A stretch of DNA of 59,331 nt, taken from NCBI GenBank assembly GCA_035529375.1, contig DATKWU010000004.1:1-59331 (forward strand), in the 5' to 3' direction. This stretch comes from Patescibacteria group bacterium (GTDB lineage: Bacteria; Patescibacteriota; Microgenomatia; PFEM01; JAHIFH01). The translations under genes and the position numbers were made by a program. Shown here in pieces: positions 50,729 to 54,194 of this stretch; position 1 is the stretch's first letter, and the number at the start of each line of letters is the position of its first letter. The notes under the pieces were generated by a model. It made no database searches and was not told where the DNA came from. It worked only from the letters and a program-made list of their open reading frames with translations.

Positions 50729-51559
50729 ATGGCTAAACAGATTGTTGATATTAATATAAACGAGCTTCAATCAAACCCCCTTCAGCCGCGAGGTGTGGTT
50801 ACTCCCGAGTCCTTAGTTGATTTAATTGAGTCGATTAAGGAACATGGTATTCTTGAACCTTTGGTGATTGCCAAAACTCCGGCTGGCTATCAAATTATTG
50901 CTGGTGAACGTCGCTGGCGGGCGGCTAAATCGGCTGGTTTGGCGACAGTGCCGGTCATCATTAAAGAAACCTCGCCTCGGGGAATGTTAGAAATGGCTTT
51001 GGTGGAAAATGTTCAGCGGGAAGATTTGAATGCTCTTGATCGGGCCAAAGCTTTTATTAGGCTAATTGAAGAGTTTGGTTTAACCAACAAAGAAATATCT
51101 AAGAGAATTAGTAAAAGCTCTGCTTACATTTCCAATTCGATCAAATTGCTTTCTTTACCTGATGCTCTCAAGGATGGTCTTTTGTCTGGTTTGATTACTG
51201 AAGGTCATGCTCGGGCTTTATCCTCAATTGACGATACTAAATTAATGATTGAGGCCTACAAAATTATTCTTCGTGAATCTGGTTCAGTCCGGAGAGCTGA
51301 AGAAGTGGCTCGGCGAATTAAGAAAAAAGGTAAACAGCCTTCTAAAACAAAGACGGCGGAGAGACCTCTAATCGTTTCTGAAGAGACAGATAAAGTTCAG
51401 GAAGATCTTCATCGGGCTCTTGGTGGTGAAGAAGATGTCCATGTCAAGTTAACTCGTTCTCGCGCCCAAACCAAACTCTACATTGTTCTCAAAGGCAACA
51501 CGAAAAAGACAGAAGATAAACTTCAGAAGATTTACCGCGGGATTACCAAAGCAAACTAA
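50729..51559 (+). CDS. parB: ParB/Spo0J partition protein
   Basis: NPLQPR, SIKEHGILEPL, IIAGERRWRAA, ALVENVQREDLN, HTH. Confidence 0.95.
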   Translation: MAKQIVDININELQSNPLQPRGVVTPESLVDLIESIKEHGILEPLVIAKTPAGYQIIAGERRWRAAKSAGLATVPVIIKETSPRGMLEMALVENVQREDLNALDRAKAFIRLIEEFGLTNKEISKRISKSSAYISNSIKLLSLPDALKDGLLSGLITEGHARALSSIDDTKLMIEAYKIILRESGSVRRAEEVARRIKKKGKQPSKTKTAERPLIVSEETDKVQEDLHRALGGEEDVHVKLTRSRAQTKLYIVLKGNTKKTEDKLQKIYRGITKAN

Positions 51560-52113
51560 TAGTCAACCCTTCTAATAATTCCAACTCTGTCAACCGGCCA
51601 GTAACGAAGCCAAACTTTACCGACAATATTCTTTTCTGGAACCGTCCCCCAATCTCGAGAGTCTGAACTGTAGGGCCGATTATCACCAGAAACAAAGTAT
51701 TGATTTTCATCAAGAGTAATACTTTGACCTGATTGCCAGAAGTGACCAGCGCTGGTGCAAAGATTTTCAGGTAAATACTCTTCTTCTAAAATCTGGCCAT
51801 TGACAAGAATATGACAATTTTCTACCTTAATGCTGTCTCCGGGCAGACCAGTAATTCTTTTAATGTAATCATATTTTTCATTCCCTGGAGCCTTAAAAAC
51901 AATTATATCACCCCTTTTGGGTTCGCTTAATTGATAAGTGATTTTATCAGTTAAAAGATATTCTTGATCCTGAAAATTAGGATACATAGAATTACCTCTG
52001 ACTTGATGGGGTTGAAAAAGAAAGAGATACATCAAAACGAAGATTGCCAGAGCAATTACAAAAGTTTCAACGATATCGAGAAAGAAGCCACCAATCTTCC
52101 TGAAAAAAACCAT
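51556..52113 (-). CDS. lepB: Signal peptidase I
   Basis: GNSMYPN, YIKRITGLPGD, GDNRPYSSDSRDWG; start 52113 or 52122. Confidence 0.95.
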   Translation of the reverse strand: MVFFRKIGGFFLDIVETFVIALAIFVLMYLFLFQPHQVRGNSMYPNFQDQEYLLTDKITYQLSEPKRGDIIVFKAPGNEKYDYIKRITGLPGDSIKVENCHILVNGQILEEEYLPENLCTSAGHFWQSGQSITLDENQYFVSGDNRPYSSDSRDWGTVPEKNIVGKVWLRYWPVDRVGIIRRVDY

Positions 52114-52178
52114 ATGAAACAATATTATTCTTCTTTAAATTGTCTGTAAAGCCTGAATTTGCTAAAATCAAGAGTGAT

Positions 52179-52252
52179 GGGTGATTAGCTCAGTTGGTTA
52201 GAGCGCTTCGTTCACATCGAAGAGGTCGCAGGTTCGAATCCTGCATCACCCA
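52179..52252 (+). tRNA. tRNA-Val (anticodon CAC), CCA not encoded
   Basis: Acceptor gggtgat/atcaccc, D-arm tagctcagttggttagagc, anticodon arm cttcg-ttCACat-cgaag, T-arm gcaggttcgaatcctgc; discriminator A followed by CTA. Confidence 0.95.
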
Positions 52253-52294
52253 CTAATTTATTTCTCTAGTTAATAATTAATTATGGAAGGAAGG

Positions 52295-52470
52295 GGGGGG
52301 AAAGATCTGGGAGGGAGGAGAAGGTTCTGTGTGGTGATGAACGTCAGGATTTGATTCGCACCCAAGACCAAGCACCGGGGGCACAGGACCAAACAAGAGT
52401 CCCGTTCCTCCTTGCGATGAACAGCAAGGAAACGAACCTCCTCACACGGACCCTCCCAGATTTCAAACTA
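52295..52470 (-). ncRNA. Candidate structured ncRNA (or micro-ORF mRNA), unassigned family
   Basis: 11-bp end pairing 52305-52315/52451-52461, internal stems, no long ORF; minus-strand promoter TTGACT-18-TACAAT at 52579-52550. Confidence 0.4.
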
Positions 52471-52594
52471 TCTTATAGGCAACCTCCTTTCGCATCGAGC
52501 CAAAGGAACCGCTTTGATTCCTGGAGATTGACTAGTTGTCAAGGATTTCATTGTAGCAAATGGAAATTAGAGAAGTCAAGGCAGAAACTCTAGA

Positions 52595-52644
52595 GGGGAC
52601 ATCATGGGCTGTTCTGGCGGCTGAAAGTGCCACATTTTGTCCCC
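52595..52644 (-). repeat. 3' structured repeat of cassette A (terminator-like)
   Basis: ggggaca...tgtcccc outer stem with internal tgttctggcggc and tgccac; similar copy at 53220-53267. Confidence 0.8.
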
Positions 52645-52664
52645 CCTTTTTTGTTTGCCTATTC

Positions 52665-53096
52665 CTAAGTACCCGTGTAGAGGGCATAGCTATTCTTTGC
52701 CATGATGATAGTACCCATCCCTACCGAGAGACTCAGGATGAAGCCAGTTGAGTATGTTGGAAGGAAAGCAGCGATGACAACCCCAGAGACAAAACCCAGG
52801 ATTATCAGTATGATCGAGATGGCGGCCAAGATGAGGACTAGGAGACAGCCTTCTTCTTCATGCTTTCCAGTGTCCAGGTAGATCATTAGGGTCCAGACCA
52901 GATAGCCTAGAGGGATATGCACCCCCCAGAACATTCCGATCCGGAACGTTCTCTCCTGCCATTCTCCAAGGGCAGCTGAACCCGCGAAGAGAGCGAGGAG
53001 AAGAAAGATGATAGAGCAGAAGACCATCGAGATGCGCCATTCCCATCTATGCGATTCTACTATCCGAAGCTGTTCATGCAGACTCCATTTGCTCAT
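52665..53096 (-). CDS. 4-TM orphan membrane protein, paralog 1
   Basis: SD aggagg; motif FxxGxxxGxxxPxGxxV shared with paralogs 2 and 3. Confidence 0.8.
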   Translation of the reverse strand: MSKWSLHEQLRIVESHRWEWRISMVFCSIIFLLLALFAGSAALGEWQERTFRIGMFWGVHIPLGYLVWTLMIYLDTGKHEEEGCLLVLILAAISIILIILGFVSGVVIAAFLPTYSTGFILSLSVGMGTIIMAKNSYALYTGT

Positions 53097-53115
53097 CCTA
53101 CCTTCCTCCTATCTC

Positions 53116-53175
53116 AATGTGCCACCAGAACAAATTAAGTATATTTAAAAAAGACTTCTAAGTCAATATTATGGG
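53116..53175 (-). repeat. 60-bp promoter/leader repeat, copy A (TTGACT-17-TATACT + leader)
   Basis: 57/60 identical to 54237-54296. Confidence 0.92.
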
Positions 53176-53219
53176 AATATAGATTAAGAATTTATTAATA
53201 TTAATTTGAAGTGTTAGAA

Positions 53220-53267
53220 GGGGACATTGCGTTGTTTTGGTGGCGAGAGCTGCCACGCTTTGTCCCC
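53220..53267 (-). repeat. 3' structured repeat of cassette B
   Basis: ggggaca...tgtcccc with internal ttgttttggtggc and tgccac. Confidence 0.8.
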
Positions 53268-53284
53268 TCCTTGTTTGTTGGCTG

Positions 53285-53695
53285 TCAGCCTTTATTGAGA
53301 ACATTAGAAAACTCAATGATCATTAAACCTCCTGCGATACTGACGGCGTACCCCCAAAGCATTATTCTTGGGGCTACCAGTATTAGGACGAAGCCAATCG
53401 GTATACCAGCTATGATCATTCCCAGGCTGCCGAAACAGACAAAACAGCCAAGGAACCAGCGAAAGGTGTTGTCTGGGTTTTTTATCGGTGCTATCGCATT
53501 GAATATGATATAGACAAATCTTCCCGCTGGAGAGATTGTTCCGACCATTACACCGGCCAGGAACAAGTTACTCATACCTTCTTGTATCTCCTTTGGTATT
53601 CCTAAAAATAAAAGGAGAGTTACAAGAACGACAACAAAGCAGTAATAGATTCTCTTGGCCCTTCTCTCTAGTCTATCTACATCTTCTTTTTTCAT
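53285..53695 (-). CDS. 4-TM orphan membrane protein, paralog 2
   Basis: Start reassigned to ATG 53695 (MKKEDV) after ggaga; shared motif. Confidence 0.8.
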   Translation of the reverse strand: MKKEDVDRLERRAKRIYYCFVVVLVTLLLFLGIPKEIQEGMSNLFLAGVMVGTISPAGRFVYIIFNAIAPIKNPDNTFRWFLGCFVCFGSLGMIIAGIPIGFVLILVAPRIMLWGYAVSIAGGLMIIEFSNVLNKG

Positions 53696-53723
53696 GGTCT
53701 TCTCCGATCTCAAAACATCATGT

Positions 53724-54194
53724 CTAGTCTTCCTTACATTTATGAGGGTCATCCTGAGAGAGCTGATATAAGCTATAGCTACCCCTTGCCATTTCGATGA
53801 TCCCTACCCCTAGTGAGAGGGTAAAGATATAGCCAATAAGGCTCATTTTTGATTGAAACAAAAGAGGTAGGCCGATTCCAAAGATTGGTCCTAGAGCTAT
53901 TATAATTATCCCAACTATGAGAATAAGGAATGGGTCTGAAACCTTCCCTCTTAGGAATAGGGCTATGTTACAGACCAGAAAGCCGGTGGGAGTGACTAAC
54001 CCCACTAGCATTCCCCCTAGAAATGAACTTTCTTGCAGGCATTCGGGGTAGTTAGCCATAAATGTGAGGAAAGCGACTAGAAGGAACAGGACAGAATAGA
54101 AGACAACTACAATGTTTTGCTCCTGTTTTTCATCCCTCATCTCTCTTTTGAGGATCCGATAGCGATCTTTCAATTTCAGATTCTTGACGGACAT
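53724..54194 (-). CDS. 4-TM orphan membrane protein, paralog 3
   Basis: SD taaggag; shared motif; C-terminal MARGSYSLY matches MAKNSYALY of paralog 1. Confidence 0.8.
   Translation of the reverse strand: MSVKNLKLKDRYRILKREMRDEKQEQNIVVVFYSVLFLLVAFLTFMANYPECLQESSFLGGMLVGLVTPTGFLVCNIALFLRGKVSDPFLILIVGIIIIALGPIFGIGLPLLFQSKMSLIGYIFTLSLGVGIIEMARGSYSLYQLSQDDPHKCKED

Follow-up and report, generated by a model that had tools for sequence, protein, structure and literature searches.

The locus between tRNA-Val and three orphan membrane-protein genes

The window analyzed here is a stretch of 59,331 nucleotides from a Patescibacteria group bacterium and represents contig C4 of the genome G000 (0.84 Mb, 19 contigs, 95% complete), whose LepB protein is 92% identical to LepB of 'Microgenomates group bacterium RBG_19FT_COMBO_39_10', which marks it as a CPR bacterium. 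Behind rpmA, parB, lepB and a tRNA-Val gene follows a gap of about 400 nt (52254-52664) that is free of genes, and then three genes for orphan membrane proteins. The GC content of the stretch in question is 0.49-0.53, compared to about 0.34-0.42 on the lepB side. The features of the candidate minus-strand element in this gap, in the following termed the unit, are listed in Table 1.

Table 1. Genes around the gap and features of the unit, in window coordinates.
Feature	Position	Strand	Remarks
rpmA, parB		+	first in the local gene order
lepB	51556-52122	-	
tRNA-Val(CAC)	52179-52253	+	convergent neighbour; context, outside the unit
C/U-rich, G-free 3' tail CUUUCCCCCCCCUUCCUUCC	52285-52304	-	likely transcript end
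Basal helix, 3' strand: GAACCUUCUC, CU, CCCUCCCAGAU	52303-52328	-	
Apical module, type A	52329-52433	-	hairpins CCUUGC-8 nt-GCAAGG and ACGGGAC...GUCCUGU
Type A hairpins in plus-strand coordinates	52410-52429; about 52384-52406		
Basal helix, 5' strand: AUCUGGGAGGG, 7-nt bulge UCCGUGU, GAGGAGGUUC	52434-52464	-	outer helix in all copies
Perfect Shine-Dalgarno-like tract GAAAGGAGGU	52482-52491	-	no usable start codon at 5-10 nt
Leader hairpin GGAAUC-loop-GGUUCC	52505-52521	-	
Predicted transcript start and TTGACAACTAGTCAA box (small 5' palindrome or hairpin)	52528-52546	-	start inferred from sequence
Sigma70-type promoter TTGACT-18 nt-TGcTACAAT (extended -10)	52550-52579	-	points at tRNA-Val; 10/12 matches
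Three orphan membrane-protein genes (143-156 aa)	52665-54194	-	upstream of the unit

All motifs listed by an earlier sequence-only reading, which had flagged the stretch as a candidate structured RNA, were found in the sequence. On the plus strand, these are the end pairing of ATCTGGGAGGG (52305-52315) with CCCTCCCAGAT (52451-52461), which gives the exact position of the pairing noted, a further pairing of AGGTTC at 52322 with GAACCT at 52434, the hairpin formed by CCTTGC (52410), 8 nt and GCAAGG (52424), two GATGAAC motifs at 52336 and 52416, and the near-tandem pair CAAGACCAAGCA at 52363 and CAGGACCAAACA at 52384. The four minus-strand GGAGG motifs correspond to CCTCC on the plus strand at 52407, 52437, 52452, and 52483, and the proposed minus-strand promoter is present as TTGACT-18-TACAAT with a TG extension.

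Both arms and the unit as a whole are single-copy in G000, and a MITE or repeated palindromic element was rejected for this reason. An island att repeat of the tRNA-Val 3' end was not found within the window. For the three membrane proteins, neither Pfam nor PADLOC gave a match over the cut-off. Their genes form three orphan units on the same strand, with the same promoter style (TTGACT as -35 region) and with G-rich/C-rich 3' hairpins; in the gene nearest to the unit, GUUCUGGUGGC near the start pairs with GCCGCCAGAAC in the 3' hairpin. On the other side, lepB is apparently leaderless, since 7-9 nt separate the end of a conserved TTTACA-17-TAnnAT promoter from the ATG and no Shine-Dalgarno (SD) sequence is present (window 52113-52150, minus strand; contig L046, 2964-2992; contig L053, 2466-2494). 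The unit is unlikely to be the leader of lepB, since lepB has kept this promoter of its own in G000, L046, and L053 and since the adjacency of lepB and tRNA-Val survives in lineages without the unit.

Copies of the unit in close relatives

Homologs were recovered by anchoring on lepB and the neighbouring membrane-protein gene. The homolog search proposed by the sequence-only reading thereby gave four additional, distinct sequences of the same locus, which belong to two species-level lineages within a single genus. The copies are those of G000 (L054 is identical), L019 (= L055), L041/L042, L043, and the partial L045, of which L041, L042, and L043 represent the RBG_19FT lineage. As in G000, tRNA-Val lies on one side of them and an orphan membrane-protein gene on the other. 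G000 and L019, which were obtained from sister samples, are 99% identical in lepB and 95% identical in the membrane-protein gene at the DNA level. A DNA search of 40 relatives gave no match beyond G000, a scan of a genome contig collection for an invariant 18-mer only chance matches in unrelated phyla, and a pattern scan of viral contigs as well as blastn against phages and plasmids no relative of the unit.

Promoter, leader and Shine-Dalgarno-like tract

The promoter is the best-kept segment of the unit, with 35 of 35 positions identical in L019 and 33 of 35 in L041-L043, compared to about 80% identity in the leader and 73-77% in the 3' hairpin of the next gene. By our estimate its conservation is only marginally above the rate of the lepB side (P about 0.02-0.09). 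Together with the promoter of the neighbouring cassette it is the best of the region, and its spacer is 2 nt shorter in all relatives. Among the copies, the TTGACAAC box at the predicted transcript start is kept and the stretch GAAAGGAGGUUGCCUAUA is invariant (alignments A3 and A4). A TTGACAAYT box just past the -10 region recurs in L019 and, in other genera, in units 1 and 2 of L046 and units 2 and 3 of L053; a promoter followed by a TTGACA box gave no comparable copy elsewhere in G000. The stem of the leader hairpin is identical in G000, L019, and L041-L043, and the loop varies in both length and sequence (AAAGC, GGAAGC, or AUUAAGAGC).

The SD-like tract is invariant in all five copies and is complementary to ACCUCCUUUC in the 3' end of the 16S rRNA of G000 itself (C5:28411; tail ...GGAUCACCUCCUUUCU). 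Behind it, a TTG follows at 0 nt, and the codons at a distance of 5-10 nt are all non-starts. MFE folding of G000 and L041 predicts that the tract pairs with the upstream tract CAAUCUCC. This masking pyrimidine tract varies between copies (window 52520-52546 compared to L019), being CAAUCUCC in G000 and L041 and AUCUCUUU in L019, and is complementary to GAAAGGAGG throughout. The 3' tail is an alternative predicted partner, so that tail and upstream tract could be mutually exclusive partners of the SD-like tract in two alternative folds. RNAalifold on alignment A4 retained the basal helix and added an outer helix of the SD-like tract with the 3' tail, in which several G.U pairs favour the minus strand. 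Since tracts of purines and pyrimidines readily pair with one another, the statistical case for this outer helix is not compelling.

The basal helix and its folding energy

The basal helix is bipartite. The 11-bp end pairing is extended by a second helix of 10 bp (plus-strand positions 52318-52327 with 52434-52443), which has a G.U pair on the minus strand that corresponds to an A.C mismatch on the plus strand. Both parts are kept in five of five copies, even where the interior is replaced, and the bulge between the 5' strands, (A)UYCGNGU of 7-8 nt, is conserved as well. One outer A.C mismatch of the G000 helix is a G-C pair in the relatives. In every copy a pyrimidine tail follows the helix, more U-rich in the relatives than in G000. 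A terminator consensus scan made no call; the helix is strong, the loop very large, and the tail C/U-mixed (UUU, C8, UU, CC, UU, CC).

With respect to the closed-end architecture suggested by the sequence-only reading, a long-range 5'/3' helix within one predicted transcript is kept in 5/5 copies, but it does not involve the first transcript bases: pairing starts about 50-80 nt past the predicted start, and a complement of the predicted 5' end was not found in the 3' part of the unit.

The fold of 52290-52480 has an energy of -69.1 kcal/mol on the minus strand (z -2.85) and of -67.5 kcal/mol on the plus strand (z -2.56), and that of the predicted full transcript -91.2 kcal/mol (z -2.40); across all tests the z-scores are modest (-2.4 to -3.1). 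The strand preference is marginal in G000 (-91.2 vs. -90.0 kcal/mol), L019 folds better on the plus strand (-46.0 vs. -40.6), and 10 of the 11 units from this and the sister genera favour the promoter strand, with G.U pairs and lower MFE. In an intergenic-only sliding fold of G000, the unit ranks 46th of 1436 windows, and a genome-wide excess of purine-first hairpins was not seen (12 vs. 17). An 11-bp perfect inverted repeat alone is unremarkable, as the window contains 11 such pairs within 200 nt and shuffled sequences contain 1-12. It is conservation that sets the feature apart from chance, with helix, promoter, and leader shared by four other distinct sequences.

Two unrelated versions of the interior

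The interior, enclosed by GAGGAGG on one side and the 3' helix strand on the other, exists in two unrelated versions. Type A (85-115 nt) is present in G000, L041, L042, and L045, and type B (42-57 nt) in L019 and L043. The hairpins measure 163, 134, 104, and 93 nt, all with the basal helix. L043 and L042 are 98.3% identical over 4 kb, and their differences lie mostly inside the interior. As each lineage contains types A and B, both alleles exist in both species-level lineages. Among the source samples, JGI 3300031565 and 3300031566 yielded type A and type B contigs.

Constraint, drift and coding potential

For G000 and L041, we compared the 28 pairs of the predicted consensus structure, which belong to the basal helix, both inner hairpins of type A, and a 4-bp stem that is doubtful. 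This gave five two-sided and two one-sided changes. Three of the double changes lie in the inner hairpins of type A and keep the pairing (C-G to U-A, C-G to G-C, and U.G to G.U/A-U). The other two fall into the doubtful 4-bp stem, which is broken in G000. A ratio of 5:2 would be opposite to what is expected from independent substitutions; this covariation is anecdotal, because it is drawn from four distinct full sequences and one partial sequence. Leader, arms, and trailer are 78-85% identical, and the four-fold-degenerate sites of lepB 85%. As these parts diverge at the rate of synonymous sites in lepB, neutral drift could account for most of the unit.

Compared to L041/L042, a break in divergence is located at 52254-53100: identity at four-fold sites is 85% in lepB and 41-49% in the adjacent gene for the 143-aa membrane protein. 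This protein shows 72-73% amino-acid identity between G000 and the RBG_19FT lineage, and its four-fold sites are saturated. The unit lies on the boundary between the two divergence regimes, with the break about at the unit, and identity alone is therefore no proof of constraint.

A reading frame conserved across the copies was not found. The 27-codon TTG micro-ORF proposed by the sequence-only reading did not hold up, as it is missing from type B and changes mostly non-synonymously between G000 and L041, at the compensatory positions of RNA stems. The sequence GGGAGG, 6-nt spacer, GUG is present in all four full copies, the GUG lying within the conserved 7-8-nt bulge. The encoded peptides would have 33, 31, 13, and 44 amino acids and share only 'MRR', which corresponds to the helix strand. 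The unit has no translated similarity to the neighbouring cassette proteins. The features of the sequence, their conservation, the compensatory changes, and the lack of a conserved ORF were observed directly in the copies.

Concerning a possible antisense function, no complementary target was found in the G000 genome or among the neighbours, and RNAduplex energies with the neighbouring mRNAs were within the range of shuffled sequences. A type I toxin-antitoxin system was rejected, as there is no conserved ORF and the complementarity to neighbouring mRNAs is not above background.

The tRNA-Val slot in other lineages

In four further lineages of the family, L047-L049 (= G002), L050/L052, L053, and L046, the same slot is a gene-poor, strongly folded stretch of 0.45-1.2 kb. 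Its GC content is above that of the flanks in L047, L050, and L046, but not in L053. Where the upstream part is covered (L047, L046, L053), one to three promoters are aimed at tRNA-Val. The closing helices of these units have a purine-rich 5' and a pyrimidine-rich 3' strand and are followed by pyrimidine tails. One to three gene-less units in tandem are located at L050:1-420, L053:1142-2365, L046:1739-2859, and L047:623-1157; some of the sister-genus helices are near-perfect purine/pyrimidine duplexes of 25-30 bp (e.g., L046 2261-2358), and within one unit the gene caller placed a 67-aa ORF (L046 2459-2662). With 36% column identity the units of other genera are unalignable with that of G000, and they are therefore considered as its positional and architectural analogues.

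Ordinary genes occupy the slot in L066, which belongs to the same family (LepB 77%), and in L067/L068, L016, L017, and G005. Since its contents differ between lineages, the tRNA-Val slot is a variable island. Contigs break at or beside tRNA-Val in G001 (L011/L044), G004 (L012), G003 (L015), and L045, which suggests strain heterogeneity in the sequence that follows. In L016, a more distant relative, the 3' half of tRNA-Val is present a second time, about 1.6 kb from the gene and in the same orientation (113-164 and 1746-1820), the signature of an element integrated at tRNA-Val.

A further hairpin element of G000, beside rho (C5:19142-19300), consists of a promoter-like site and, behind it, a tandem of two long perfect hairpins, of which the second has a U-rich tail. 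About 130 nt of this stretch lack an ORF of at least 70 aa, and a 77-aa frame starting past the promoter-like site overlaps the stretch. Judged from its sequence, this element is possibly another gene-less small transcript. Another long hairpin, on C13, represents the 5' UTR of a gene.

Known RNA families and the SRP pathway

The Rfam check suggested by the sequence-only reading, in which both strands of the window, of L013, and of L046 were run with the gathering score and with E<=10 as thresholds, returned only tRNA and noise, and no family matches the stretch. RNase P RNA and tmRNA are located on contig C9, away from the unit. The 6S-like rod that had been considered was rejected, as RF00013 has no match in the window at E<=10 or in the whole genome and as a conserved rod with a central bubble is irreconcilable with unrelated interiors within one species: the inner 112 nt are replaced by unrelated 42-57 nt in close relatives. 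SRP RNA (RF00169, RF01854) was rejected as well, since neither model matched and neither strand carries a GNAR-loop domain IV motif.

As a side result, SRP RNA matched neither model anywhere in G000, and the Ffh M domain (PF02978) and the SRP54 GTPase domain (PF00448) had no match in this genome, i.e., Ffh and FtsY were undetected. In six frames of G000, no GxxGxGKTT...DTAGR signature was present. Within the class, RF00169 was found in 0 of 26 genomes and PF00448 exceeded the Pfam cut-off in 0 of 41 (G000 and 40 relatives), some of which are rated 100% complete; of the 14 control genomes, all or nearly all match. A literature search found no paper addressing an undetectable SRP pathway in this class. 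Since no Ffh/SRP54 domain is detectable in G000, an SRP RNA would be partnerless.

A possible gene-less RNA and the alternatives

Since the copies share a promoter but no reading frame, a new sRNA or RNA-only closed-end member, as had been proposed from the sequence, is the reading that fits best. The minus strand would then encode a structured RNA that stands alone, contains no gene, and has protected ends, and that belongs to the closed-end class as an sRNA-like member specific to this lineage; we give this reading a probability of about 0.45. That the unit is transcribed, where its RNA begins and ends, how stable the RNA is, how transcription stops, and whether it acts in trans are all inferred from sequence. 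The conserved extended -10 promoter (52579-52550) would fire toward tRNA-Val and produce an RNA of about 260 nt, reaching roughly from 52546 to 52285. In this RNA a short 5' palindrome, the leader hairpin, and the masked SD-like tract would be followed by one long hairpin of irregular shape, with two closing helices of 11-13 and 10 bp. Purine-rich, SD-like sequence (GGGAGG, GAGGAGG) forms the 5' side of these helices, and pyrimidine-rich, CCUCC-like sequence forms their 3' side and the tail, so that nearly the whole molecule would be double-stranded with both ends tucked in. Such a closed rod might shield the RNA from RNase J, which degrades 5' to 3', and from 3' exonucleases, and the hairpin with its G-free C/U tail might act as an intrinsic or Rho-assisted terminator some 30-50 nt short of the tRNA-Val 3' end. 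As G000 encodes RNase J as well as Rho, end protection and tail-assisted termination are plausible. The basal rod would confer stability and termination, and the apical 40-115 nt would be a swappable module with two old alleles, most likely the part that bears specificity.

Alternatively, the unit might be the relic of a gene cassette which lost its ORF and kept promoter, SD sequence, and terminator hairpin, being now either functionless or a terminator or insulator of convergent transcription. We consider this the main rival, less likely than the gene-less RNA, though it accounts for a good part of the data. The unit directly follows three orphan units on the same strand that have the same promoter style and similar 3' hairpins, its perfect SD sequence has no proper start codon behind it, and no two copies have the same frames. 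Strains that are otherwise nearly identical differ by large indels and a replaced interior, most segments diverge at the synonymous rate of lepB, and the slot itself is variable, with ordinary genes in L066, L067, L016, L017, and G005 and contig breaks in G001 and G004. However, compensatory double changes in two interior hairpins are unexpected in dead sequence, the promoter is better kept than its surroundings, and there is no translated similarity to the proteins of the neighbouring cassettes. A plain terminator needs neither conserved interior hairpins nor a conserved 75-nt leader, and a streamlined genome of 0.84 Mb usually deletes dead DNA.

A reading from the plus strand, in which the hairpin serves as 3' trailer or terminator of tRNA-Val, possibly bidirectional, or as a processed RNA like E. 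coli 3'ETS-leuZ, appears improbable. tRNA-Val has no hairpin of its own before 52303, and its transcript must therefore run into the unit. As an inverted repeat, the unit can fold on either strand (plus strand: -67.5 kcal/mol, z -2.56), and in L019 the plus-strand fold is even the better one. But the U-rich run expected after the helix is weak in G000 (AUUUCAAACUAUCUU) and missing in L041 (CCCCAAUAAACA), the consensus G.U pairs become A.C on the plus strand, and 10 of 11 units fold better on the minus strand. Lineages with other genes after tRNA-Val have no such hairpin, and the conserved minus-strand promoter and leader would be left unexplained.

Slightly less probable still is a tiny, fast-evolving peptide, or a leader whose translation itself matters, initiated at the GUG of the bulge ('MRR...') behind the SD sequence GGGAGG at a spacing of 6 nt. 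The presence of this arrangement in all four full copies speaks for such a peptide; the products of 33, 31, 13, and 44 aa are, however, unrelated past three residues, the SD sequence is buried in the 11-13-bp helix, and the conserved 'codons' are a helix strand. A divergent housekeeping RNA (6S or SRP RNA), for which the lack of matches to RF00013, RF00169, and RF01854 anywhere in G000 and the rod-like shape seen in the sequence-only reading could be cited, is effectively refuted by the replaced or shortened interior between 98%-identical strains, the lack of a match even at E<=10 and of a GNAR-loop/AGCA domain IV motif, and the missing unit in L066 and other relatives.

Going beyond the reading as a gene-less structured RNA, the unit could be the first representative of a 'closed-rod' RNA family with modular design, located in accessory islands of Microgenomates. 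Such RNAs would combine a rod and a masked SD sequence with an exchangeable apical module for specificity, maintained as an old balanced polymorphism with types A and B present side by side in sister samples and in both species, and would act in self/non-self, phage, or host interaction. The units in the slot of the sister genera would then be diverged relatives. We regard this extension as speculative and rather improbable.

In compact CPR genomes, a conserved, gene-free unit of 300-400 nt with its own promoter is unlikely to be idle. To our knowledge, almost no regulatory RNAs of CPR bacteria are known experimentally. If transcribed, the unit would represent a new lineage-specific RNA family and a natural RNA in which both ends and every ribosome-binding-like tract are masked, and it would extend the 'closed-end' design from the neighbouring mRNAs to an RNA without an ORF. 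The exchange of two ancient apical alleles between strains of about 98-99% identity points to a hot spot of recombination or selection, and population metagenomics could follow this apical-allele site. If the unit is a relic, it documents the decay of an orphan cassette at a tRNA-linked variable slot.

Comparison with known systems

The unit resembles 6S RNA in its size range and, in G000, in the overall impression of a rod, but differs from it by the lack of a model match, by an interior that varies within a species, and by the absence of a central bubble shared by the copies. With long or bidirectional terminators between convergent genes it has in common a GC-rich helix with a purine-rich upstream and a pyrimidine-rich downstream flank. 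Unlike such terminators, the stem encloses 40-115 nt with conserved sub-hairpins, a canonical U-tract is missing, and a promoter of its own and a conserved 75-nt leader lie ahead of the hairpin.

The STAB-SD of B. thuringiensis cry3A is a 5' stabilizer of mRNA (Agaisse and Lereclus, 1996; reviewed in PMC4113751). Similarly, the unit has a 5' SD-like tract GAAAGGAGG that does not direct initiation and is fully complementary to the 16S rRNA 3' end. In contrast to STAB-SD, this tract is predicted to be paired, which would hinder binding of the 30S subunit, and there is no downstream coding sequence to protect. In the B. subtilis hbs mRNA, a long-range interaction of 5' and 3' UTR modulates RNase Y cleavage of a translated mRNA (Braun, Durand and Condon, 2017; PMC5737220). 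The unit shares with hbs the long-range 5'/3' helix, a host with RNase J, and the involvement of a strong SD sequence, but differs in that no ORF lies between the paired parts and that the first transcript bases are uninvolved, the pairing starting about 50-80 nt downstream.

The 'closed-end' orphan units of the window belong to the same array as the unit and have the same orientation. In its workings, the unit would come closest to an ordinary bacterial sRNA gene joined with the 5'/3' pairing principle of hbs mRNA, and its STAB-SD-like tract would be a masked one. Compared to bacterial sRNA genes, the unit differs in that no target, chaperone site, or seed region was identified, in that it is almost wholly double-stranded with an apical part of two unrelated alleles, and in that its transcript is predicted. 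In its architecture it is nevertheless like these genes, which encode RNAs of 50-300 nt: it has a stand-alone promoter, no conserved ORF, a structured body, a terminal hairpin with a pyrimidine tail, a GC content above that of the AT-rich surroundings, and a narrow lineage distribution. The unit matches no described RNA family and is lineage-restricted, and its apical dimorphism is the one unusual trait.
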